IMG/VR virus record: IMGVR_UViG_3300036790_000265 | Coordinates: 1 to 64,000 of that record | Origin: a virus | Lineage: Duplodnaviria > Heunggongvirae > Uroviricota > Caudoviricetes | Strand: one strand, 5' to 3' | Length of the DNA: 64,000 nucleotides | Part shown: positions 156 through 61,055 of the stretch, one piece after another | Numbering within the stretch: the first letter of the stretch is position 1 | How the letters are laid out: every line of letters starts with the position of its first letter | Translations under genes and position numbers: made by a program | Notes under the pieces: model-generated | Told to the model about the DNA's origin: nothing | Databases searched by the model: none | Seen by the model: only the letters and a program-made list of their open reading frames with translations

Positions 156-1676
156 ATGGAACGGCCTGGCAACATCCGGGGCGGCCTTCGCGCCGGGATC
201 TACGACCGGGTGAGCAAAAAGCCCACTGGCAAAGAGGCACGCTCGGTGGCCAGCCAGAACAAGGCCAACCGTCTCGCATGCAACCGCTACGAATGGACGG
301 TGGCAGCCAAGTACGCCGACCCGGGCGTCTCGGCGTCCAGGCACGCCAAGACCAAGCGCCGCGACGACTACGAGCGGCTGCGCGATGACGTGCGAGCCGG
401 CACGCTGGACGTGATCGTGTTCTGGGAATCTTCCCGCGGCGACCGGAAACTGGGGGAGTGGGCGTCGTTCCTGGATGACTGCCGGGACCACCACGTCTTG
501 ATCTACATCACCTCCCACGACCGGCTCTACGACATGTCCCGCAGCCGGGACCGGCGCAGCCTCGCCGAGGACGGGGTGGACTCCGAGTACGAGACCGACA
601 AACTGTCCGAGCGCGTCACGCGCGGGCTGAACACGAGCCTCGAACTCGGCCGCCCACACGGCGTGACCCCGTTCGGGTGCGTCCGCACATACGACCGGTT
701 CCGCAACCTCGTGTCTCAGGGGCCCGACCCGGCAACAGGGTGGGTGCCCCGCGAGGTGATCACGCGGGTCGCGGACATGGAACCTGTCTCGGCGATCCGG
801 AAAGATATGGCCGCCCGCGGTGCGCCGACCGCCCGCGGCGGCCCGTGGACAGACGCGCTGGTGCGCAAGTTCGCGTTGAACCCTGCCTACGCGGCCCTGC
901 GGATCGGGCCTGACGGGGAGTTCATCGACGGGATGCAAGGCTGGGAGCCGGTTGTCCCCCGGGATGTCTGGTTGCGTGCCTACCAGCGGGTGACGTCGAA
1001 CCAGCACGGGAGCTGGCACCCGGGCGCGAAGCACCTTTACCTGCTGTCGTACCTGGCGATGTGCGGGAACTGCGGCGGCCCGTTGCGCAGGCAACCGGTC
1101 CGGGGCCTGGAGATGTACAGCTGCAAAGACAACTCGTGTGCGTCGATCAAGATGGAGTGGCTTGACGCGTACGTGCTCGGGCGCCTGTGCCGGCTCCTCG
1201 ACGACCCGGCGTTCTGGGCCGAGTTGCTGCGGGAGGACGACGGGCCGGTGAAAGCAGCCCGCGCGAAAGTGGCCGGGCTACGACTCCAGTTGCAGGGTTT
1301 TGAGGCCAAAGCCATCGAAGGCGAGATCGACCCGGAATCGTTCGCGACGATCTCCAAAGGACTTCGGGCCAAGATCAGGGAGGCAGAAGGCGGCGTTACC
1401 CCAGTGACCGTGCCAGCGCACCTGATCGCCCTTCATGAGGACGATTCGGGGACGTCGGTCCGCGAACTGGTGGAATCCTGGCCGCTCGCTACCCGGAAGG
1501 CGACCCTCCGCGATTTCTATGACGGGGTGATCCTCCTGCCGGCTGGAGGACGCGGCCGGCAGGCTGGGTTCAACCCGGGCCGGGTGCTGCTCGTCCGGAA
1601 GGGTCAGCCGGTGTGGGGAAGCGGCGCGACTCGTCAGGCAGCGTCTTGGGTTCGGGTGGTTGAGGCGGCAGCCTGA
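156..1676 (+). CDS. large serine recombinase (phage integrase type)
   Basis: N-terminal resolvase domain (GIYDRVSKK...S nucleophile region), recombinase domain, zinc ribbon CGNCGGPL..C, C-terminal coiled coil; 506 aa. Confidence 0.9.
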   Translation: MERPGNIRGGLRAGIYDRVSKKPTGKEARSVASQNKANRLACNRYEWTVAAKYADPGVSASRHAKTKRRDDYERLRDDVRAGTLDVIVFWESSRGDRKLGEWASFLDDCRDHHVLIYITSHDRLYDMSRSRDRRSLAEDGVDSEYETDKLSERVTRGLNTSLELGRPHGVTPFGCVRTYDRFRNLVSQGPDPATGWVPREVITRVADMEPVSAIRKDMAARGAPTARGGPWTDALVRKFALNPAYAALRIGPDGEFIDGMQGWEPVVPRDVWLRAYQRVTSNQHGSWHPGAKHLYLLSYLAMCGNCGGPLRRQPVRGLEMYSCKDNSCASIKMEWLDAYVLGRLCRLLDDPAFWAELLREDDGPVKAARAKVAGLRLQLQGFEAKAIEGEIDPESFATISKGLRAKIREAEGGVTPVTVPAHLIALHEDDSGTSVRELVESWPLATRKATLRDFYDGVILLPAGGRGRQAGFNPGRVLLVRKGQPVWGSGATRQAASWVRVVEAAA

Positions 1677-1912
1677 TCCGCCGCGGGCCCGGGTTCGGGG
1701 AGCTTTCCCAGGAGCCGATGGTAGGCGAGCGCGTGTCTCACGCTCGGCCGCCGGACGCCGGATTCCCACTGCGACACGGTGGACGGGGCGACGTCGAGTG
1801 TTGCGGCGACGTCGGTCTGGGTGATCATGGCGGCCTCGCGGCGGGCGCGGGCGGTCCCGTTCCCCAGCTCAATGCGGATCTGCGCTACGGCAGTCAGTTC
1901 GGATTGCTTCAC
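1634..1912 (-). CDS. XRE-family HTH transcriptional regulator
   Basis: MITQTDVAATLDVAPSTVSQWESGVRRPS is a classic Cro/CI HTH. Confidence 0.7.
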   Translation of the reverse strand: MKQSELTAVAQIRIELGNGTARARREAAMITQTDVAATLDVAPSTVSQWESGVRRPSVRHALAYHRLLGKLPEPGPAADQAAASTTRTQDAA

Positions 1913-2034
1913 ACGATCATGTTACGGATCGTGCGTCAGATCGAAAACAGTCGATTCACGAGGTAATCACATCCGTGTTACTCTAGTTACCGGGAATGTA
2001 GATTCCCGGTAGTTGACCCCGTTTCGGAGGCCCC

Positions 2035-3033
2035 GTGAGTGATCTTGAAATCGTTCCGCACAGCGACCTCGCCGCAACATCCGCGACACCACTGCGGCGC
2101 CGCGACGAGAACCCGTACTGGGTGTACCTCGCACGGTTTAGAGGCGAGTCCGAGCGCACCATGCGACGGTGCCTCGACCGGATTGCGGCGATCATCCTCA
2201 GCCGCTCCCCCGCCGACCCTGAACATGATCTTGGTGAGCAGATCCCGTGGGAACAGATCCGCTACGCCCACGTGGCCCGGCTCCGGTCCGAGTTCGCGGT
2301 GCAGTGGCAGTCGCCCAGCAGCGCGAACAAGCACCTGTCCGCGCTGCGCGGCGTACTCCACGAAGCGTGGCGACTCGGGCTGATGACCGCTGAGGACTAC
2401 CAGCGGGCCATCGACGTCGAGAACGTCAAGGGCAGCCGCCTGCTGGCCGGCCGGAACATCCACGCCGACGAGACCACCGCCATGCTCCGCGTCTGCCTGG
2501 CCGACGAGAACGCCCCGCTCGGCATCCGCGACGCCGCACTGGTCGCCGTGCTCCAGTCCACCGGCATCCGCCGCGCTGAGGCCGCAGCCGCGCTGATCGA
2601 GCGGTACGACCCCGGTGAGCGTGGGCTCAAGCTTGTCGGCAAGGGCAACAAGGAACGGATCGTGTTCATCCACCCGGGCGCGGTTCCCTACCTGGATGGG
2701 TGGCTTGTCCTGCTCGGTGTACGCCGCGGCGCGATGTTCCGGCGCGTCGACCGGTGGGGCAACATCGGTGCTGAGCGGCTGAGTGCGCGGGCGATCGGCT
2801 ACATCGTCAACCATCGCCGTGAGCAGGCCGGGCTGCCGAAACTCTCAACGCACGATTTTCGCAGGACTTTCATCGGCGACTTCATCGATGCCGGCGGTGA
2901 CCTTGTGCAGGCGCAGAAGCTCGCCGGGCACGCGTCGGCCACGACTACGGCCGCCTACGACCGGCGCCCAGACCGCGCGCTGCGTACGGCTGTGGACAAA
3001 CTGAGCCTGCCCCCGAGGGAGAAGCTCCGATGA
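2035..3033 (+). CDS. tyrosine recombinase / integrase (XerC/D-like)
   Basis: C-terminal catalytic box LSTHDFRRTF...LAGHASATTTAAYDRR (R..HxxR..Y). Confidence 0.85.
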   Translation: MSDLEIVPHSDLAATSATPLRRRDENPYWVYLARFRGESERTMRRCLDRIAAIILSRSPADPEHDLGEQIPWEQIRYAHVARLRSEFAVQWQSPSSANKHLSALRGVLHEAWRLGLMTAEDYQRAIDVENVKGSRLLAGRNIHADETTAMLRVCLADENAPLGIRDAALVAVLQSTGIRRAEAAAALIERYDPGERGLKLVGKGNKERIVFIHPGAVPYLDGWLVLLGVRRGAMFRRVDRWGNIGAERLSARAIGYIVNHRREQAGLPKLSTHDFRRTFIGDFIDAGGDLVQAQKLAGHASATTTAAYDRRPDRALRTAVDKLSLPPREKLR

Positions 3034-6736: not shown

Positions 6737-7924
6737 TCACGTGATGACTCCCCACCGGACGGAACTGTCCGCGATCGCCACAACCGGGTAACCGGCATGC
6801 ATGGTCAGCGCGCCCCATAGGTTCTCGCGTACGGCGATAGCCCGGACCTGGATCGACTTCCGGGCCAGCCGGTCCAAGAGTCCTTCGATCTCGCCCCGGA
6901 ACTGCCACCAGGACGGGACCTGCCACATCGGCTGTTCCGCGATGATCGCCCGCGCGATCAGCTCATCCGCTCCCCCACCAGACAGGCCAGCCCTGAGCTT
7001 CCCAATGACCAGTTGCCCTACGTCACCGGCTGGTTCGGGGGCGGTCAGCACTCCCCATTCCAGTGCTGATGTCGCGACACGGATCACGGAATGGCCACAC
7101 GCTGTGACGAGGCCGGGTCGGAAGCCTTCCCGCATCACGATCCCGGTTACCGGGATGGCGTGGACCGCGAGCTCGTCCAATGCGGCCCACATCTTGTCGC
7201 CCTCATTGGCAGGTGGCGGCTCCTGCGGCGGTACAGGGGTAACAGCGAACCCGGTCATTCGCCGGTGAGCGCGTACTTCGGGGTGTTCTTCCCACGCCCG
7301 GGTGAGCGTGTCGGGCAGCCCGAACGCGTCCGCGATCTCGCCGGCGACCCGGCGTGCCTGCTCGGACCGGGCAGCAGCGGCCCTGGCCTTGTCAGCGGCC
7401 ATATGCCAAGCGCGGCCAGCCTGGAACCTGTTGGCGTACTTGCCAGCGCAGGCGGCGAGTTGGTCGAACTCGGCGGCCAGTTCGAGGAGCGCGATCGTGC
7501 GGGCGGCCGACCTAGGCAGCATCAGCGGCACCTGCGGCGGTTCAGGCTCGCCGTGCTCGATCGTGACCAGGCCCAGGCGGCGGCGCACGTCGTCGAGCCA
7601 CGCCTGCCGATCGGCGACCTCCTCGTCCCGGTCGATGACCGGGAGCCCCCACAGCGTCGCCGGCCAGCGGAACACGCGGCGCAGCGGGTGCCGCACGTTC
7701 TCGCTCTGGTTGATCGCCTCGGCCAGGGCGTCGGCGAGTTGGTGTGCCGAGTCGCCGTGGTACAGGCCAAGGGTGCCGACGTAGAAGTTGTCACCCTCGT
7801 ACAGGTCCACCGAGCGGTCGGAGCGGCCGGGGCGCAGCGTCAGTTTGCCAGTGCAGCTCTCGGTGACGCCGTTGACTGTTCGCTGGTGGAGTATCGGGAT
7901 CTCGCGGAACCGTTGGCTTGCCAT
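6737..7924 (-). CDS. hypothetical protein (395 aa)
   Basis: Long ORF; start at MASQRFREIP; no recognisable motif. Confidence 0.5.
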   Translation of the reverse strand: MASQRFREIPILHQRTVNGVTESCTGKLTLRPGRSDRSVDLYEGDNFYVGTLGLYHGDSAHQLADALAEAINQSENVRHPLRRVFRWPATLWGLPVIDRDEEVADRQAWLDDVRRRLGLVTIEHGEPEPPQVPLMLPRSAARTIALLELAAEFDQLAACAGKYANRFQAGRAWHMAADKARAAAARSEQARRVAGEIADAFGLPDTLTRAWEEHPEVRAHRRMTGFAVTPVPPQEPPPANEGDKMWAALDELAVHAIPVTGIVMREGFRPGLVTACGHSVIRVATSALEWGVLTAPEPAGDVGQLVIGKLRAGLSGGGADELIARAIIAEQPMWQVPSWWQFRGEIEGLLDRLARKSIQVRAIAVRENLWGALTMHAGYPVVAIADSSVRWGVIT

Positions 7925-7926
7925 GA

Positions 7927-8274
7927 TCAGGTGGGCTGTCCTTCCTGGGGGACGGGCATGGCGCCCCACGCTTCCTGGTAGCCGGGCCGGTACCGGTAGC
8001 CGCTAGCCATGAGGCGGACCGTAGGGCAGGGCAGGTGCTGAAAATCGCACACGACACACCACGCGCCTCCGATGGCAGAGTCGGGGTCACCTAGATGGCG
8101 CTCCAGGATGGCCAGCTTTGCCTCGCAGTCTGCGATCACATCCTGCGGGCCGTGGCGGACGATGTGGCGGATGGCGTGCTCGCGCTTCTCGCCGAAGCCG
8201 CTGGTCTCGGCTATCTTCTTGTCGCCTTCGATCGTGGCCCGCAGCCACGCCACCGGGTAAAAGGCTGGCGGCAC
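7927..8274 (-). CDS. hypothetical protein
   Basis: ORF, coupled. Confidence 0.45.
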   Translation of the reverse strand: MPPAFYPVAWLRATIEGDKKIAETSGFGEKREHAIRHIVRHGPQDVIADCEAKLAILERHLGDPDSAIGGAWCVVCDFQHLPCPTVRLMASGYRYRPGYQEAWGAMPVPQEGQPT

Positions 8275-8277
8275 GGT

Positions 8278-9045
8278 TCAGGCCGCCTTGAGGCAGGGCA
8301 GGACCGGGATGGCCTCGGCCAGCCAGTTACCAGGCTCGGCCGCGAACCGGGGAGCTGGCATCGGTAGCCAGTGCGCCCACGGCAAATCGGTCTCGGAGGT
8401 GATACGGCGGCAGATGCGGCCGCGGCGGGCCCCTTCCGGGTAGTCGTTCCAGTTGATCCCGGCTTCCTGCCACAGCAGCTCTTGCATCTGGTCGCCGTTC
8501 AGGCCGTGGAGCCGGCTGTGCGAGAAGCAGGCTTGGGCGGCCATCGCGATCGAGTTCCGTACCGCGTCGCGTTGCCGCCACAGGAAGTAGTTCGCCACCT
8601 CGACCGCGCTGGGGATGGTGAACACCCGCCCGTCGAACATGGCCGGATGCGGCGGCAGCGCTTGCACCAGGCCGGGGATGGTCCGGGCGCGGTCGTTGAA
8701 CGTTGCGGTGGCCAACGCGGCGGCCGACGACGCGATCTTCTGGACGTTCCCGCCGAACCACGGTTCGGTTTGGAAGGTGGCGAAGTCGGTGAGCAGCAGC
8801 GACACTTCGTCGGATTGCTGGTAGGAGAACACGGTCCCGCTGATCTGCGAGCACAACGCGACAGCAACCAGGTTGATCGCCTGCATGACCCCGTAGTCGA
8901 ACGGGCGTTTAGCCTGGCGCAGGTAGGTGTGGAACGCGCGGCCGTCGACGCGGATGATCGTGTAGGTGCGGCGTGGAAGCACCTGCCGGGTTGGGGTCTC
9001 GTAGGCCTTCATACGGTCGCCGAGGGCTGTGCTGTCACTGCTCAA
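8278..9045 (-). CDS. Thg1-like protein (tRNA-His guanylyltransferase family, 3'-5' nucleotidyl polymerase)
   Basis: YTIIRVDGRAFH, QQSDEVSLLL and FDGRVFTIPS...YFLWRQRDAVRN align with Thg1 motifs VVVRLDGRNFH, GQSDEYSFVF and FDGRVVVYPS...YLSWRQADCH. Confidence 0.8.
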   Translation of the reverse strand: MSSDSTALGDRMKAYETPTRQVLPRRTYTIIRVDGRAFHTYLRQAKRPFDYGVMQAINLVAVALCSQISGTVFSYQQSDEVSLLLTDFATFQTEPWFGGNVQKIASSAAALATATFNDRARTIPGLVQALPPHPAMFDGRVFTIPSAVEVANYFLWRQRDAVRNSIAMAAQACFSHSRLHGLNGDQMQELLWQEAGINWNDYPEGARRGRICRRITSETDLPWAHWLPMPAPRFAAEPGNWLAEAIPVLPCLKAA

Positions 9046-9395
9046 ACGATCACGCTCGCACTCCCGGGATGGGGCTCGTAGGGGTTATCGCGGCTGTCGG
9101 TCACGTTGATGAGCGGGGCCGTGCAGGTCACCACCACCGGTTCCCCCGGCCCGACTTCATGCTTGAGGGCGAGCGAGTCCTGGTCGTCCACTTCGCTGAG
9201 GTTCATCTGCCCCTGGGCGACGGTGCGCGGGTCTTTCCCGCGGCCGGGGACTGCGCGGACGGTAACCGGGGCGATGATGTCGCCGGGGTCAGAGATCAGC
9301 ATGTCGGGCGGCAACCAGACTGTGATGACGTCGCCGGGTTGCAGGCCGTTCGGGTGACGGGTCACCCACGAGTTGTAAACCTGGTCACTGGCCAC
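9042..9395 (-). CDS. hypothetical protein
   Basis: ORF, ATGA coupling. Confidence 0.4.
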   Translation of the reverse strand: MASDQVYNSWVTRHPNGLQPGDVITVWLPPDMLISDPGDIIAPVTVRAVPGRGKDPRTVAQGQMNLSEVDDQDSLALKHEVGPGEPVVVTCTAPLINVTDSRDNPYEPHPGSASVIV

Positions 9396-10230
9396 GGAGA
9401 GACCGCCTCTCCCGGGCCGGGCCGGTCTCGGGTGACCGCCAGTCGCCGAGATCAGGCGGTGGCGGTGGGATCACGTCGCCCGCGCCGAGGGCGACGACCT
9501 CGCGGGCGGTGAACGGGCCGGCCGTTGCCAGCGCGGGCAGCACGAGCGGCCAGGTGAGGTGTTCGCCGTGGGTCCTGGTCACCCACTCGGCGTCTGGCCA
9601 CGCGGGCACCTCGGCCGGTTCCCACGTGAACGTGAGCGCGCGGTCGTCGTCGCCTGGGTTGTACTGCCACAGGTACGAGCCTTCGTCGTCAGGCGGCCAG
9701 GTGGCCTCATACCAGCCAGACGCAGGAGCCACATAGCCGCCGAGAATCACCGAGGCCCAGAAGCCGATGACATCTGGGTCGATGTCCCGCACGGTGTAGA
9801 CGCCCATAGGGGACAACGTCGTTGGATCAGACCCCGGGCAAGTGCCGTAGCGAACCTCTGGCAGGCCTTCCAACTCTCGGAGGCGGTTCAACGTCATGCA
9901 CCCGTACGACACGACATCGAACGAGCGGACGATCGGCTCACATTCGGCGTAGATCCAGCCGAGCAGACCGGAGACGGCGCGAGTTTGGGAGCCTCGTACC
10001 CAGCCGGCGTAAGGGCTGTCGTGCCAGTTCTGCGCGGCGACGTCGGCGACCGCGAGCCAGGCGGCGTATCCGTCCAGGCCGGTGTCGTGCATGACCTGAC
10101 GTACGGTCTCGATGTCGCGGGGCGGCAGGTGCGGGAACACGCGGCCGGTGCAGCGCATCGCGTCCTCGCTGACCGTCCAGTCGTCGAGGGCGCCGTCGAT
10201 CGCGGCTAGGACGCTAGCGACATCAGGCAC
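9385..10230 (-). CDS. hypothetical protein (281 aa)
   Basis: ORF between the Thg1-like and RtcB genes; GTG start in cccGTGCCTGATg context. Confidence 0.45.
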   Translation of the reverse strand: MPDVASVLAAIDGALDDWTVSEDAMRCTGRVFPHLPPRDIETVRQVMHDTGLDGYAAWLAVADVAAQNWHDSPYAGWVRGSQTRAVSGLLGWIYAECEPIVRSFDVVSYGCMTLNRLRELEGLPEVRYGTCPGSDPTTLSPMGVYTVRDIDPDVIGFWASVILGGYVAPASGWYEATWPPDDEGSYLWQYNPGDDDRALTFTWEPAEVPAWPDAEWVTRTHGEHLTWPLVLPALATAGPFTAREVVALGAGDVIPPPPPDLGDWRSPETGPARERRSLRGQ

Positions 10231-10236
10231 GGGCCG

Positions 10237-11409
10237 CTACTCTCCCTTAACGTTCACGATCTGCCGCAGCGTGTGCACGACCTCAACGAGGTCGGCCGCG
10301 TCGGCCATCACCTGATCGACTGGCTTGTAAGCGCCGGGGATCTCGTCCAGGAACGCATCGCTGTGCCGCCATTCGATGCCCTCCATTGCGGTGTCGAGCT
10401 GCTCGCGGGTGAACGTCTTGCGGGCCGAGTTGCGGCTGTGCATCCTGCCAGCACCATGCGGCGACGAGTTGAGTGCCAGCCGGTTTCCCTTTCCCCGCAC
10501 GACGTACGAGGCGGTGCCCATCGAGCCGGGAATCAGGCCCGGCGTGCCGTCGCTGGCGTCGATCGCGCCCTTGCGGCTCAGCCAGACTTTCTTGCCAAAA
10601 TGGGTCTCCTGCTCCGTGTAATTGTGGTGACACTGCACCGCCTCCAGGCCGGTGACCGGCATGCCGGTCCAGGCGTCCAGGCACAGAAGGACGCGGTGCA
10701 TCATCTCCTGCCGGTTCAGCAGGGCGAAGTGCTGCGCCCAGCGCAGGTCGCGGATGTAGGCCCAGAACTCGTCGTCGCCCTCGACCAGGTAGGCGAGGTC
10801 TGGGTCGGGGAGGCTGATCCACCGCTTCTTGCACTGCTGCTGGGCGATCTTGATGTGGCGCATGGCGAGCTTGTTGCCGACGCCGCGCGAGCCGCTGTGC
10901 AGGAACGCCCAGACGTGGCCGTGCTCGTCGAGGCTGATCTCGATGAAGTGGTTCCCGCTGCCCAGCGAGCCGAGTTGCAGCCGCCAGTTCGGGGCGATGG
11001 CCTCCGCGCTGGCCGCGCCATCGCCGAACTCCTCCAGGTCGGCGATCCGCTGCTCGGTCGCGGCGCCGAAGACGGCCTCGTTGTAGACGCCGACCGACAG
11101 CGGGATGGCCTGCTCGATGGCCTCGCGCAGCCTGCTCAGGTGCGGCAGCCCGCGCACGTCCGCAGCGGTCAGGTGGGTGCGCACGGCATGCATGCCGCAG
11201 CCGATATCGACGCCGACCGCTGCCGGCATGATCGCACCGAGCGTCGGGATCACGCTGCCCACGGTCGCGCCCTTACCGAGGTGCGCGTCCGGCATCAGCG
11301 CGATGTGCGGGTGGATGAACGGCATCGTCGACGCCAACTCGGCCTGGGTGCGCGTGTTCGGCTCCAGGATCGACGCCCAGTTGATCAGGCGTTTCGTGAT
11401 CTGCTCCAT
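10237..11409 (-). CDS. rtcB: RNA-splicing ligase RtcB (3'-phosphate/5'-hydroxyl RNA ligase)
   Basis: Near full-length colinearity with E. coli RtcB: MPDAHLGKGATVGSVIP, VGVDIGCGM, GSGNHFIEI, HSGSRGVGN, CHHNY, PGSMG, HGAGR. Confidence 0.95.
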   Translation of the reverse strand: MEQITKRLINWASILEPNTRTQAELASTMPFIHPHIALMPDAHLGKGATVGSVIPTLGAIMPAAVGVDIGCGMHAVRTHLTAADVRGLPHLSRLREAIEQAIPLSVGVYNEAVFGAATEQRIADLEEFGDGAASAEAIAPNWRLQLGSLGSGNHFIEISLDEHGHVWAFLHSGSRGVGNKLAMRHIKIAQQQCKKRWISLPDPDLAYLVEGDDEFWAYIRDLRWAQHFALLNRQEMMHRVLLCLDAWTGMPVTGLEAVQCHHNYTEQETHFGKKVWLSRKGAIDASDGTPGLIPGSMGTASYVVRGKGNRLALNSSPHGAGRMHSRNSARKTFTREQLDTAMEGIEWRHSDAFLDEIPGAYKPVDQVMADAADLVEVVHTLRQIVNVKGE

Positions 11410-11644: not shown

Positions 11645-13405
11645 TCAGGCATCGACGCTCCTGGCATGCTGGGCCAGCGTCTCATCGGCGACCATCTCGC
11701 TGTAGCCGCTGATCAGCTCCAGCGTCCGCAGCCGTGACAGGGCGTTAGAGAAGGTACTGCTCGTCACCGAGTAGCCGGTCGCTGCGGACAGGTGGTCCTT
11801 GGTGGCCGGTGCGGGCCACGCATCAAGGAGTGCGCGCAGGATCGCCCGTTCCGACTTGCCCAGCCGGCTCATCCAGTACTCGATCAGGGCGTCGCCGGTC
11901 GGCAGCGGTTCCCACTGGTCACCTAGCGCCGAGACCCCGGCCTCGGTGATGGTGATGGGGTTGCTGCGATTGATCAGGCCGCCGACGCGCAGCGAGGACA
12001 GCGTGTTCCCGAACGTGCTGCTTTTCACCGAGTACCCGGAGAGGGTCGCGATCTGGTTCTTGCTGCGGCCGTCCGGGAACTGGGCGAGTACGGTCAGCAC
12101 GGCCCGTGCCGCCTTGCCCAGCGTCATCTCCTCTGGAGAGCCGGCCGGTAGTACTGCGGGCTGCGGTCGCGGCACTGTGGCCGGTGTGGCCTCCGGTGCG
12201 GCCGGTTCCGGCCGGGCGGTGGGCACCGGGCGTGCGGTGGCACGGCTGATGGCTATCTCCAGTCCGTTCGCGACGTCGCGAAGTGCGGTGATGGCCTGCT
12301 CGACGGCAGCCAGGTCGCCGGGCGTGAGCACGGAGACTTCCACACGCGCGGGCGGCTTGGCCCGCTCGGCGGCAAGTTCCGCCCGCAGGGCCGCCACGTC
12401 CTCGCTGCTGGTGCTGTCGCGAGCCTTCGCCGCGATCTGGCGCTGAAGCTCGGCGACCTGGCGGCGCAACGCCTTCGGGTCGTCCTGTGCGGCCTTCTCC
12501 GTGACCTCGGCCATGCGCTCGGTGAGCGCGCCCAGGTCGATGTCGGCCAGCGAGGCGACCGGCGCGGACTTGCGCATCGTCGGGGTCGCGCCCGAGTCGA
12601 ACGTGGACCGCTGCCGGAACCGCACCCGCTGCACCGCCGGCTGGCCTTCGCGGGCCAGCCAGTGCGGCGAGCACACCCACGCCTCGCCGTCGTCCAGGCC
12701 GGGCAGGGAACCCACCAGCTCGTGGGCGACGGCGTGGTAATCAACCCAGCCGAGGATGGCCTTGCGGTCCTGCGGGCTGGTGGTGCGCAGTGCGATCATC
12801 GTGCCGACCTGGGTCAGCGCGTCCTTGTTCACCACGGCCGACCGCTGGGAGATGAGCGTCACGCCCAGGCCCCGGCTGCCGCCCTGCTTGACCAGCTTGG
12901 TCCACGCGCCGACGCATTTAGCCTGCTCGCCGCGGACGGTCTGCGGGATGAACTCGTCGGCTTCCTCCAGGAACAGGTGGCGGGGCACCGGGTTGCGGCC
13001 GTGCAGCCGGAACAGGTGGTCGGCGAGGTCGGTGAGGAACCGCATCTGCGCGGCCTTGGATGGGAACTCGCTCACGTCCAGGACGCAGGTCAGGTTCTGG
13101 TCACAGATCAGCTCCGCGATCAGCTTCCCCGCCTCGGGCACCAGCGGCATGTCGCCGTGCAAGCCGCCGAAGATCGGGATCGGCAGCCCATCGCCTTTGC
13201 CGTCCGCCGACGAGCGCAGGCCCCACCAGTCGCCCTTGGGGTCGATGGCGACCCACGGCAAACCGGCGCGGTACATCTCCTCGGCCATCACCGCTGCCGC
13301 GTTCGATTTGCCGGCGCGGCGGACGGCCAGCAGGGCGATCGACTGGGTGATCGCGTCCAGTGGGAGGGTGAGCCGGTCGGCCACCCGCAAGCCGCTACCT
13401 GCCAT
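11645..13405 (-). CDS. HerA/DUF87-like P-loop ATPase with two C-terminal winged-helix repeats
   Basis: Walker A AVRRAGKS, Walker B-like FLEEADEF, duplicated ...GYSV(K/T)SSTF(G/S)N(T/A)LS(S/R)LR... segments at the C terminus. Confidence 0.6.
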   Translation of the reverse strand: MAGSGLRVADRLTLPLDAITQSIALLAVRRAGKSNAAAVMAEEMYRAGLPWVAIDPKGDWWGLRSSADGKGDGLPIPIFGGLHGDMPLVPEAGKLIAELICDQNLTCVLDVSEFPSKAAQMRFLTDLADHLFRLHGRNPVPRHLFLEEADEFIPQTVRGEQAKCVGAWTKLVKQGGSRGLGVTLISQRSAVVNKDALTQVGTMIALRTTSPQDRKAILGWVDYHAVAHELVGSLPGLDDGEAWVCSPHWLAREGQPAVQRVRFRQRSTFDSGATPTMRKSAPVASLADIDLGALTERMAEVTEKAAQDDPKALRRQVAELQRQIAAKARDSTSSEDVAALRAELAAERAKPPARVEVSVLTPGDLAAVEQAITALRDVANGLEIAISRATARPVPTARPEPAAPEATPATVPRPQPAVLPAGSPEEMTLGKAARAVLTVLAQFPDGRSKNQIATLSGYSVKSSTFGNTLSSLRVGGLINRSNPITITEAGVSALGDQWEPLPTGDALIEYWMSRLGKSERAILRALLDAWPAPATKDHLSAATGYSVTSSTFSNALSRLRTLELISGYSEMVADETLAQHARSVDA

Positions 13406-20114: not shown

Positions 20115-20486
20115 TCACTCGACCGCCTCACACGACTTGCAGATCCACCGGTCCGGGTCGTCCAGATCGCGTCGGCAGGTGCGCCGCTCCTCGCAGCACC
20201 AGCAGAGCTGATTGCGCTTCTCCTCCCGCCCCGGCAGCGGCTCAGGCCCAGGCTCGGGCAGTGGGACCGCACCAACGCGCTCGCGGTAGATCGCCCGCAC
20301 CGCCTCGTCCCGCTCAGCCAGCGCCGCCACCAGATCGGCCTCCGAGAGGTCCGTCGCGACCTGCCGGAGCATCGGCCCGAACTCGGCCACACACTGCGGG
20401 CACGGGCTGGCCGGTGAGTCTGACTGGTTCCGGCAGCCGGGGAGTGCACACTCGGCGAACAGAACGAGCTGGCCGACTTCCGTCAT
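20115..20486 (-). CDS. zinc-finger-rich hypothetical protein
   Basis: Multiple CxxC pairs. Confidence 0.4.
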   Translation of the reverse strand: MTEVGQLVLFAECALPGCRNQSDSPASPCPQCVAEFGPMLRQVATDLSEADLVAALAERDEAVRAIYRERVGAVPLPEPGPEPLPGREEKRNQLCWCCEERRTCRRDLDDPDRWICKSCEAVE

Positions 20487-21304
20487 GCTGCACTCCAATC
20501 CAGGCCAAGGGAGTCCTGCTCGCCGACCGTGACAAGCCGCGACAAGAGGTCGGCGCGCCACTGGGAGGCGTAGATCAAACAATTGGCGCAGTTCTTGTGC
20601 GTGTGGCCGGGTAGCGGCGGGTTACGCCGCGCCTCATAGCTCCAGGCCATCGAGTCGGCCGAGATGAGCTTGTGCCCAAACGACCGCAATCCCTGGGTCT
20701 TCACCCCGAACGCGTGCACCGCATACTCGGGGGTCAGGGCCTCGATCAGCATGCTGATCCGCGCGGTCCCCTGCCGCCGGCACACCGACCCGACCCCGAC
20801 AACCGGATAGTCCGCCAGCTTCACCCCGGCCGCGGCGTACAGGTCAGCGCAGCGGAGGTATTCGCCGATCGTCCAGCCCTGCAACACGGGCATGAACGGG
20901 CACTCGCTGTCGCTGTACGCAGGCCAGAGGTTCACGAGCTGGAGGAAGTTCTCAACTGTCCGCCGCTGGTGCTCACCAACGCTCAGGTGGGTACCGGGGC
21001 AGCCCGCGCCGCCCTGGATGATCCACGGCTCGCACATCCAGTCCTGCGGCGCTGCCCACTCCAGGTGCCCGATCTCAGTGTCGTAGCGGGCCACGGCCGC
21101 GCAGTACTCGGCCGGGGTGGTGCGCCACTCCCCGAACTTGGACAGTTCGGTGAAGCCGCCGCTGTCGAGCGCCCAGCCGTGTGTGGACGGCTGGAAGGTC
21201 TTGTAGCGGGACAGCGCGCGGTGGCCAACGAACATCGGGAAGTCGGCGGCGGGGGTCCACAGCCAGTGGGGCTGGTGGGAGCCGAGGTAGAAGTGGCAGG
21301 TCAC
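20483..21304 (-). CDS. TGT-superfamily transglycosylase-like protein (tRNA-guanine transglycosylase / DpdA-like)
   Basis: WALDSGGFTE matches the TGT active-site motif LTDSGGFQV; VVGVGSV matches MGVGKP; CxxC near the C terminus. Confidence 0.5.
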   Translation of the reverse strand: MTCHFYLGSHQPHWLWTPAADFPMFVGHRALSRYKTFQPSTHGWALDSGGFTELSKFGEWRTTPAEYCAAVARYDTEIGHLEWAAPQDWMCEPWIIQGGAGCPGTHLSVGEHQRRTVENFLQLVNLWPAYSDSECPFMPVLQGWTIGEYLRCADLYAAAGVKLADYPVVGVGSVCRRQGTARISMLIEALTPEYAVHAFGVKTQGLRSFGHKLISADSMAWSYEARRNPPLPGHTHKNCANCLIYASQWRADLLSRLVTVGEQDSLGLDWSAA

Positions 21305-60781: not shown

Positions 60782-61055
60782 CAGCGACCCGGCGTGGTGT
60801 GCCTGCACCCCCTGGACGGCGGTCACCGCAGGCCCCCGTCCGCCAGCGCGACCAGGAGCGCGGCGGACTGGTCGCGGCGGGCCGCGGCGAGGATCTTGTG
60901 TGCGGTGGTTTTGGCCCGCCGGAACCCCGTGCTCTCTGTGCGGCCCGGGTGGTCGGGGATATCTACGGTCCAGGAGTGGTCTTCGTGTTCGGTGTGCACG
61001 CCGCCGCCCGGCTTGTGGCTGGCCGGGCCGCCTGGGCACCGGCAGGTCGCATCAT

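Follow-up and report, generated by a model that had tools for sequence, protein, structure and literature searches.

In a window of 64,000 nucleotides, which is the whole stretch of viral DNA that was analysed, an RtcB RNA ligase and a Thg1-like protein (TLP) are encoded close together on the same strand. The reading that we favour, with a probability of roughly 0.6, is that these are two self-sufficient RNA-repair enzymes whose genes a temperate, phage-like actinomycete element took up separately, as accessories within its long early-gene array, and that the two enzymes probably guard the host tRNA pool in parallel. The identities of the enzymes, their intact active sites, the mosaic origin of the region and the neighbourhood statistics are established. 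The pairing itself is a rare mosaic, assembled separately from known phage repair genes, and not a conserved new module.

The locus consists of four open reading frames, given here in the order of transcription (RtcB, o281, o117, TLP):

11409..10237, minus strand: RtcB, 390 aa; open reading frame with a Pfam RtcB match
10230..9385, minus strand: o281, 281 aa; open reading frame to which the family libraries assign no function
9395..9042, minus strand: o117, 117 aa; open reading frame, predicted beta-sandwich
9045..8278, minus strand: TLP, 255 aa, TTG start; Pfam Thg1 match

All four reading frames of the earlier note are present at these positions and on this strand, and each has a coding signature (GC3 of 0.83-0.92, with o281 at 0.83, in a sequence of 67% GC). 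Because the genes sit on the minus strand, the TLP is located downstream of RtcB, and not upstream of it as had been claimed. RtcB and o281 are separated by a 6-nt gap, o281 and o117 overlap by 11 nt, and the stop of o117 lies over the start of the TLP gene in a 4-nt overlap (TTGA); the two enzymes are thereby 1.2 kb and two genes apart within one tightly packed same-strand array. From 4.5 to 14.5 kb of the window, the minus strand showed no terminator-like site. The packing is not special to these four genes: it is a property of the entire ~40-kb minus-strand array. The TTG start of the TLP at 9045 is the right one: the N-terminal GDRMK aligns with residues 3-9 of the TLP of Bacillus thuringiensis (BtTLP), and the JGI call (P0001, 244 aa, start at M12) loses this conserved N-terminus.

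RtcB was recognised in an HMM search with Pfam PF01139 (E=2.6e-117, 393 bits, profile positions 1-426 of 426) and among the PHROGs with phrog_1075 (E=1.3e-139). Via a His-GMP intermediate, RtcB joins a 5'-OH end to an end with a 3'-P or a 2',3'-cyclic-P. In an alignment to the RtcB of P. horikoshii the metal ligands, an asparagine (N153) and the GMP-accepting histidine are all kept: D68, C71, N153, H154, H171, H262 and H318 of the window protein correspond to D95, C98, N202, H203, H234, H329 and the nucleophile H404, respectively. NCBIfam divides the RtcB relatives into several functional subfamilies, and the window RtcB reaches no equivalog cut-off. Both the E. coli-type model (NF007153; 149.6 bits versus 407) and the PrfH-linked model (TIGR03073; 116.3 bits versus 271.8) are missed, and the best match, to the exteins of RtcB relatives with inteins, is also under its cut-off. 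A Pfam search of the ~80 window ORFs revealed no RtcA, RlaP, archease or RtcR beside RtcB, and tblastn queries for RlaP, Pnkp and the CCA-adding enzyme had no match in the window.

The identification of the TLP is equally borne out by Pfam Thg1 (PF04446; E=7.1e-26, 91.1 bits versus a cut-off of 29.2, profile positions 2-130 of 130) and by phrog_4717, 'tRNA-His guanylyltransferase' (E=7.7e-74). The best solved structure is that of BtTLP (4kgk; Hmmer E=6.8e-52, residues 7-212), whereas eukaryotic Thg1 structures match far worse (E=3.4e-14 to 1.6e-10). The Thg1 carboxylates, whose absence the earlier note had named as grounds against its reading, are present: D34, D79 and E80 align with D30, D75 and E76 of BtTLP, which correspond to D29, D76 and E77 of the human enzyme. 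The residues for NTP binding and activation are kept as well in the 4kgk alignment, where E16, R32, H39, K46 and S78 match E12, R28, H35, K43 and S74. The C-terminal domain of Thg1 (PF14413) scores 23.3 bits, under the cut-off of 26.3; nonetheless the alignment with BtTLP reaches residue 212. At the HINNLYN-type segment of eukaryotic Thg1 the window TLP has WRQRDAVRNSIAM and BtTLP has the counterpart WRQQDASKNSISM; Candida Thg1 displays DCHINNLYN plus an insertion where the window TLP reads RDAVRNSIAM. By these alignments the protein is a TLP of the bacterial type and not a eukaryotic tRNA-His-specific Thg1, and its predicted activity is templated 3'-5' nucleotide transfer, by which tRNA acceptor ends truncated on the 5' side would be rebuilt. 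The substrates of TLPs are 5'-phosphate or 5'-triphosphate ends, which are absent from the substrates of RtcB. To our knowledge, no biological role has been shown to date for any bacterial or phage TLP.

The element is likely a prophage, as had been proposed. The window carries a serine integrase, a tyrosine integrase, RecT, a helicase, DpdA, a GH25 lysin and many replication and recombination genes of PHROG type, but within these 64 kb no gene for a capsid, portal, terminase or tail protein could be recognised (the source contig measures 99.9 kb, with ~36 kb outside the window). Rfam returned no RNA gene, tRNA included, for the whole window, so that neither a Y-RNA-like nor a tRNA partner is found there; ARAGORN places a tRNA-Gln at 60877, unconfirmed by Rfam. 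When 50 kb of the window were compared by megablast with the phage collection, the matches were limited to short patches in RtcB and DpdA; exact-sequence look-ups of the TLP, RtcB and o117 gave no record, and only one twin contig was recovered, from Logan (L003, 10 kb). A reading of the cluster as a defence system in its own right was discarded, since the PADLOC matches are confined to an upstream HerA-like ATPase.

The mosaic origin of the locus follows from a comparison with another element, L164, which shares the backbone genes o281, DUF6221 and o410 with the window. Relative to L164, RtcB is an insertion (its flanks are 1.2 kb apart in the window and 218 bp apart in L164), and the slot of the TLP is filled in L164 by an extra DUF6221 gene. 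By this comparison RtcB and the TLP represent two separate insertions or replacements around a shared backbone. The proteins o281, o117 and o410 match nothing in Pfam, PHROGs, PADLOC or NCBIfam. Only 4 homologues of o281 were found among 5.8 billion proteins, and its AlphaFold model (pLDDT 38.7) is unusable. One homologue, P0122 (58% identity), is encoded in L164 with neither RtcB nor a TLP nearby. Because it occurs without either enzyme, o281 is not a repair subunit; its distribution marks it as a backbone gene of the phage lineage, unconnected to RNA repair.

The gene neighbourhoods place both RtcB and the TLP in a known phage repair network. RlaP, which extends damaged RNA 3' ends by 1-2 nt, is located in rtcB operons (PMC12776372), and phage RtcB and Thg1 have been catalogued together as RNA-repair enzymes (PMC7824862). 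Among actinobacterial viral contigs, RtcB is preceded by RlaP in L185 and by RlaP and a CCA-adding enzyme in L167, and lies close to RlaP on the opposite strand in L166; the RtcB proteins of this group are 60-77% identical to that of the window (60-73% for L185 and L167). In L177/L178 RtcB is followed by a PNKP phosphatase (RtcB identity 63-64%). For the TLP, in turn, the next gene downstream is RlaP in L007, L224, L106/107 and L126, and a PNKP phosphatase gene in L009. Of the distinct TLP loci, 13 have an RlaP-like gene and 7 a PNKP-like gene less than 10 kb away, and in the cluster J mycobacteriophage Pound the TLP is three genes from Pnk. The vicinity of RlaP and PNKP phosphatase lends support to the putative RNA-repair role of the TLP.

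What we infer on substrates, expression timing and a counter-defence role is the following. During infection or induction, RtcB and the TLP would most likely shield the host tRNA pool from nucleases. RtcB (His318-GMP; Mn-binding D68/C71/H154/H171/H262) would directly seal 2',3'-cyclic-P or 3'-P ends, as left by metal-independent ribonucleases, to 5'-OH ends. The TLP (two-metal site D34/D79, with E80) would activate a 5'-phosphate end and then refill the missing 5' nucleotides of the acceptor stem, including G-1 of tRNA-His, with the 3' strand as template; according to PMC4820378, the 5' end is first activated by the TLP with ATP or GTP. The TLP would thus take the nucleotide-restoring role that RlaP, and sometimes a CCA-adding enzyme, has beside related RtcB genes. 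As RtcB needs a 5'-OH and the TLP a 5'-phosphate, the two enzymes probably act in parallel and not in series. Several points speak against this reading. Since no kinase was found in the window, the TLP could not use 5'-OH ends, and Rfam shows no RNA gene there that the enzymes might serve. Anti-phage tRNases are documented to cut in anticodon loops and stems, in D-loops and, within the acceptor stem, on its 3' strand (PMC12916289), and the literature on them yielded no known defence nuclease that cuts tRNA to a 5'-truncated acceptor stem.

It appears unlikely that the two genes are neighbours by chance and have unrelated roles, with the TLP serving, for example, only in the upkeep of G-1 on tRNA-His or on non-tRNA 5' ends, and RtcB in rRNA repair or to the benefit of the lysogen under toxin-antitoxin action or stress, instead of in phage counter-defence. 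The highly mosaic nature of the region is in line with such a juxtaposition, as is the lack of a conserved TLP neighbour: of the 84 actinobacterial TLP loci, no more than 7 share any one neighbour. (Two larger neighbour clusters at these loci turned out to be artefacts of antisense ORFs inside the TLP gene.) RtcB lies within 10 kb of the TLP in one of 240 TLP loci (~230 distinct), and this ~0.4% is not above the rate of RtcB in phage records (1.4%); conversely, none of 46 RtcB loci has a TLP within 10 kb. The spread of RtcB relatives over several NCBIfam functional subfamilies, with the window RtcB under all equivalog cut-offs, would also fit unrelated roles. On the other hand, each enzyme has, independently of the other, links to RlaP and PNKP phosphatase in related elements, and their co-occurrence at the genome level is well over that expected under independence. 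Among the 50,697 records of INPHARED, a TLP is found in 163 and RtcB in 705, from which ~2.3 joint records are expected; at least 17 were observed, in Bacillus phages that are without exception large myoviruses of a single subfamily (Bastillevirinae). Co-occurrence above chance, the absence of which had also been named as refuting, therefore holds for whole genomes. Recurrent physical linkage across independent elements was not found: the distance between the genes in these Bacillus phages is mostly 50-105 kb, the exceptions being Goe8 (2.9 kb) and BSP38 (10.7 kb).

The protein o117 is possibly accessory to the nucleotide-adding enzyme encoded downstream of it. Intact copies number two among billions of proteins, one in the window and one in L295/L296, and in both cases a 4-nt overlap couples its translation to that of an RNA-end nucleotidyl transferase, the folds of the two transferases being unrelated: RlaP in L295 holds the slot that the TLP occupies here. 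It could be argued that the functional unit is o117 with its enzyme, o117 being an adaptor that steers the TLP (5'-end refill) or RlaP (3'-end refill) to damaged tRNA, and RtcB a mere neighbour. The restriction of DNA homology between the window and L295/L296 to o117 alone favours this idea, which we nevertheless consider unlikely. With only two occurrences, from related samples, the pattern may reflect a single shared ancestry with a variable downstream slot, and L164 contains a 30-aa remnant of o117 that no repair enzyme follows. The ~230 other TLP loci have no o117 homologue, so that TLPs clearly work without it, and the predicted fold, a generic beta-sandwich, is uninformative. Distinctly unlikely is the wider proposal that in actinomycete temperate phages the TLP is an in-place substitute for RlaP in RNA-ligase-centred tRNA repair, with o117 as the adaptor that couples either enzyme to damaged tRNA; if true, it would provide the first biological role for bacterial and phage TLPs, directed against a host nuclease, as yet undescribed, by which the 5' or acceptor ends of tRNAs would be trimmed.

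Highly improbable, and largely refuted by the surveys, is the original proposal of one dedicated, co-evolved counter-defence module of all four genes, with the intervening proteins as specificity or end-healing subunits: its tight packing without an internal terminator and the proximity of the enzymes in two other phages, Goe8 and L143 (8 kb), are outweighed by the scarcity of linkage, by the absence of o281 and o117 homologues from all 240 TLP and 46 RtcB loci, by the separate acquisition of the enzymes and the independent occurrence of o281, by the intervening genes of Goe8 (an AIPR protein and a sigma factor, unrelated to o281 and o117), by end chemistries that are not sequential, and by the model of o117, in which no kinase, phosphatase, phosphoesterase or archease fold was seen. 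For o117 a weak hint of an accessory function is what persists of that proposal.

We thus return to two enzymes acquired separately and probably acting side by side. Their pairing alone reveals no new system, and the statement that no phage with both had been described was too strong, the two being co-listed in PMC7824862 and publicly annotated together in Bacillus phage Goe8. What the neighbourhoods (RlaP and PNKP phosphatase adjacent in several independent elements, the exchange for RlaP after o117, and RtcB nearby in this element) do is to assign the phage TLPs to the toolkit for RNA repair and counter-defence.

With T4 Pnkp/Rnl1 and the Pnk and RNA ligase of cluster J mycobacteriophages (PMC3706429) the window shares the theme of phage-borne repair of host-inflicted tRNA damage. 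The analogy with T4 that had been drawn is imprecise. RtcB needs no end healing and thereby covers on its own the function of Pnkp and Rnl1; the TLP, acting on other ends, brings a different capability. Neither Pnkp nor an ATP-dependent RNA ligase (Rnl) was detected in the window with Pfam, nor Pnk by tblastn with the Pound protein.

The toolkit of jumbo phages for restoring cleaved tRNAs comprises RtcB, Rnl1/Rnl2, RlaP, the CCA-adding enzyme and Thg1 (Iyer, Anantharaman, Krishnan, Burroughs, Aravind 2021, PMC7824862), and the Bastillevirinae phages of Bacillus resemble the window in carrying both RtcB and a TLP. The jumbo lytic phages are rich in tRNA genes and hold the pair tens of kb apart; the high-GC actinomycete element studied here is temperate and integrase-bearing, with the pair 1.2 kb apart and no Rfam-supported tRNA gene in the window.

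BtTLP (4kgk/4kgm; PMC3701042) represents the bacterial TLP type, whose main activity is templated repair of tRNA 5' ends, and all its named catalytic and NTP-binding residues are kept in the window TLP. Unlike BtTLP, the latter is borne by a mobile element, has a C-terminal tail of ~40 residues common to actinobacterial homologues, and has a predicted activity.

Finally, the closest parallels in gene arrangement are the rtcB-rlaP-rtcA operon of Pseudomonas (PMC12776372) and the RlaP(-CCA)-RtcB cassettes of L185 and L167, which likewise combine RtcB with an enzyme that restores terminal nucleotides, on the same strand and within ~1 kb. The RtcA, RtcR, archease and RlaP of rtcB operons are not found in the window, and its pair, unlike the RlaP-RtcB cassettes, is split by two unrelated backbone genes. 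The partner of RtcB differs in type: in the rtcB-rlaP systems it is the Pol-beta-type RlaP, which acts on 3'-OH ends, whereas in the window it is a Thg1-like 3'-5' polymerase, predicted to act on 5' ends.

The RNA ligase RtcB and the Thg1-like 3'-5' polymerase (TLP) are encoded 1.2 kb apart in the following run of genes:

11409..10237, minus strand: RtcB gene, 390 aa
10230..9385, minus strand: o281 (281 aa), between RtcB and o117
9395..9042, minus strand: o117 (117 aa), between o281 and TLP
9045..8278, minus strand: TLP gene, 255 aa, TTG start
8274..7927, minus strand: DUF6221 gene, next after TLP
7969..6737, minus strand: o410, after the DUF6221 gene

Transcription runs from RtcB through o281 and o117 to TLP, and then on to the DUF6221 gene and o410. 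The earlier note had placed TLP upstream of RtcB, which is the wrong direction, since on the minus strand TLP comes downstream. The first four ORFs are GC-biased at the third codon position, as real genes are (GC3 of 0.83-0.92 in a sequence of 67% GC). RtcB and o281 are separated by 6 nt, o281 and o117 overlap by 11 nt, and o117 and TLP by 4 nt (TTGA); from 4.5 to 14.5 kb the minus strand is free of terminator-like sites. Such tight packing is a general trait of the minus-strand array (~45 kb to 3.4 kb) and not peculiar to these four genes.

The proposed enzyme identities hold, with the active-site residues of both proteins present by alignment. The match of RtcB to Pfam PF01139 spans the whole protein (E=2.6e-117), and phrog_1075 matches as well. 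Residues D95, C98, N202, H203, H234, H329 and H404 of P. horikoshii RtcB align with D68, C71, N153, H154, H171, H262 and H318, so that the residues that bind metal and the histidine that accepts GMP are all conserved. In NCBIfam the protein (10237-11409, minus strand) is matched best by the exteins of RtcB relatives that contain inteins. Among viral relatives the closest (79% identity; contig L165, 5534-7004) has a match region ~300 bp longer than the window gene, and the extra stretch may be an insertion.

TLP scores 91 bits against the Pfam Thg1 model (cut-off 29.2) and matches phrog_4717 (E=7.7e-74); the closest solved structure is the Bacillus thuringiensis TLP (BtTLP, 4kgk; E=6.8e-52). 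In the residue numbering of the structure paper (PMC3701042), the BtTLP carboxylates D30, D75 and E76 correspond to D34, D79 and E80, and E12, R28, H35, K43 and S74 to E16, R32, H39, K46 and S78. Because the alignment is BtTLP-like at the position of the HINNLYN-type segment of eukaryotic Thg1, the protein is a bacterial-type TLP. The main activity of this class is the templated repair of 5'-truncated tRNAs. The TTG start at 9045 is correct, as it preserves the conserved GDRMK N-terminus; the public JGI call (P0001, 244 aa) begins at an internal ATG (M12; window 9012-9045, minus strand) and misses 11 N-terminal residues, including part of this motif.

The element that carries the genes has the following further features:

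156-3033, plus strand: adjacent serine and tyrosine integrase genes, with a small HTH gene between them
Minus-strand array, ~40 kb: DpdA, a methyltransferase fusion, helicase, exonuclease, RecT and a HerA-like ATPase
20483-21304, minus strand: the DpdA gene of this array (PF23859, E=4.8e-102; phrog 'queuine tRNA-ribosyltransferase')
11645-13405, minus strand: HerA/FtsK-like ATPase two genes upstream of RtcB, 586 aa including a long C-terminal extension
Plus-strand block: FtsK/SpoIIIE
In the window: GH25 lysin
60877-60958, plus strand: tRNA-Gln(UUG) called by ARAGORN, overlapping an opposite-strand DUF6424 ORF in its 5' part

The paired integrases could represent two nested or adjacent mobile elements, and DpdA suggests that the element probably swaps DNA guanine for a 7-deazaguanine derivative. 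Anti-phage HerA models and a PHROG terminase family match the 586-aa ATPase weakly. No virion genes were recognised in the 64-kb window and no close relative was found in 50,697 phage records. Most relatives of TLP and RtcB are on viral contigs of IMG/VR, several of which are proviruses in sequenced actinomycetes, and the element is likely to be a prophage. Among its ~80 ORFs no further RNA-repair gene (Pnkp, RlaP, RtcA, archease, CCA-adding enzyme or Rnl) was found. It is doubtful that the tRNA-Gln call is a genuine gene, since Rfam finds no RNA gene in the window; its tRNA model stays below threshold at that site.

The earlier note proposed RtcB and TLP as one phage tRNA end-repair module, a reading that neither the linkage data nor the comparison with a related contig supports. 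The TLP survey covered 240 loci (~230 distinct), of which genomes, IMG/VR and metagenomes contributed 80 each, with flanks of at most 10 kb to either side; many of the metagenome contigs are short. RtcB lay within 10 kb of TLP in a single locus (L143, at 8 kb), and TLP lay near RtcB in none of the 46 viral loci with a relative of the window RtcB. Homologues of o281 and o117 were absent from both sets, and the most widespread neighbouring gene family occurred in at most 7 of the 84 actinobacterial TLP loci. The expectation of co-occurrence above chance fails for linkage within 10 kb and stands at the genome level: in INPHARED, TLP occurs in 163 and RtcB in 705 of 50,697 records, for which independence expects ~2.3 joint records, and crossing the record lists gave at least 17 Bacillus-phage records with both genes. 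Since these are all ~150-165 kb myoviruses of one subfamily, they represent few independent events, with genome size as a confounder. In these phages a distance of 50-105 kb between the two genes is the norm, the exceptions being BSP38 (10.7 kb) and Goe8 (2.9 kb, with an AIPR protein and a sigma factor in between).

The related contig, L164 (4.6 kb), shares its backbone with the window and carries the only good o281 homologue (P0122, 58% identity). DNA similarity restarts at window 10245, at the RtcB stop, and the next short match, immediately upstream of RtcB (window 11488-11444), is separated from it by 218 bp in L164 versus 1.2 kb in the window; RtcB is therefore a discrete insertion. In the window, o117 and TLP fill the space from the end of o281 to the DUF6221 gene; in L164 that space holds an o117 remnant and an extra DUF6221 gene. 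The last ~30 residues of P0122 (L164 1548-2435) match the o117 C-terminus, a deletion having fused the two genes. RtcB and TLP are therefore two separate indels, and o281 is a backbone gene that is present in L164 without either enzyme.

Both intervening genes are rare. Four o281 homologues were found in 5.8 billion proteins, and the protein has no family match in Pfam, PHROG, PADLOC or NCBIfam and no usable structure model. For o117, whose predicted fold is a beta-sandwich matching generic sandwich and carbohydrate-binding modules only, one intact homologue (P0125) was found in 1.8 billion representatives. On the two contigs that encode it (L295 220-1325; L296 2-1089), the next gene downstream is RlaP (PF10127, E=2e-29), which P0125 overlaps by 4 nt just as o117 overlaps TLP, and DNA similarity to the window is confined to o117. 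RlaP, a frequent member of rtcB operons, extends damaged 3' ends of RNA by 1-2 nt (PMC12776372). The slot after o117 thus holds TLP in the window and RlaP on these contigs, both enzymes that restore nucleotides at RNA ends; with two occurrences of o117, from related samples, we regard this swap as a lead rather than a result.

Searches of the loci for RlaP, Pnkp and CCA-adding enzymes, with the hits confirmed in Pfam, revealed these arrangements:

L185: RlaP then RtcB
L167: RlaP, CCA-adding enzyme, RtcB
L166: RlaP nearby, on the opposite strand to RtcB
L177 and L178: RtcB then PNKP phosphatase
L007 2916-4402, L224 1596-3019 and L126 10001-11201: RlaP directly downstream of TLP
L106 and L107 10001-11888: TLP, RlaP, PNKP-type phosphatase
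L009 10001-11232: PNKP phosphatase directly downstream of TLP

The RtcB genes in the first four lines are relatives of that in the window. Within 10 kb of TLP, 13 distinct loci have an RlaP-like gene and 7 a PNKP-like gene. Given these common neighbours, TLP and RtcB belong to one neighbourhood network, in which RlaP and PNKP are the usual partners and the direct TLP-RtcB link is rare. In the cluster J mycobacteriophage Pound, TLP (annotated 'tRNA nucleotidyltransferase', and 'hypothetical' in sister phages) lies three genes upstream of Pnk (L001 7998-10246, genes 114-117). Pnk, RNA ligase and tRNAs of cluster J have already been proposed as an RNA-repair set in a paper that is silent on TLP (PMC3706429). 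Of the first 160 TLP loci, 30 have one or more tRNA genes inside the 10-kb flanks. In several Streptomyces loci (L017, L047, L048, L052 and L053, ~9700-10915; also L044 and L011) a tRNA-Trp(CCA) gene is found ~70-300 bp from TLP.

TLP uses ATP or GTP to activate a 5'-phosphate, or takes a 5'-triphosphate, before templated addition (PMC4820378). RtcB joins 3'-P or 2',3'-cyclic-P ends to 5'-OH ends, with no end healing required (PMC7824862), and the substrate or product of TLP would therefore be unfit for RtcB. As the end chemistries differ and no kinase is present, the two enzymes would most likely act in parallel on separate lesions, not in series. None of the anti-phage tRNases described in the literature yields 5'-truncated acceptor stems.

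The two enzymes have already been named together: RtcB, Rnl1/2, RlaP, CCA-adding enzyme and Thg1 were listed jointly as phage RNA-repair enzymes (Iyer et al. 2021, PMC7824862), and the public Goe8 record annotates TLP and RtcB close together. Beyond that general listing we found no TLP-RlaP association in the literature. The recurrent adjacency of TLP to RlaP or PNKP and the swap downstream of o117 are the more interesting by-products, pointing to direct experiments on TLP biology. The pair itself is of a known kind but rarely combined: a repair set built around RtcB, with TLP where RlaP is usual, in which RtcB alone does the joint job of T4 Pnkp and Rnl1.
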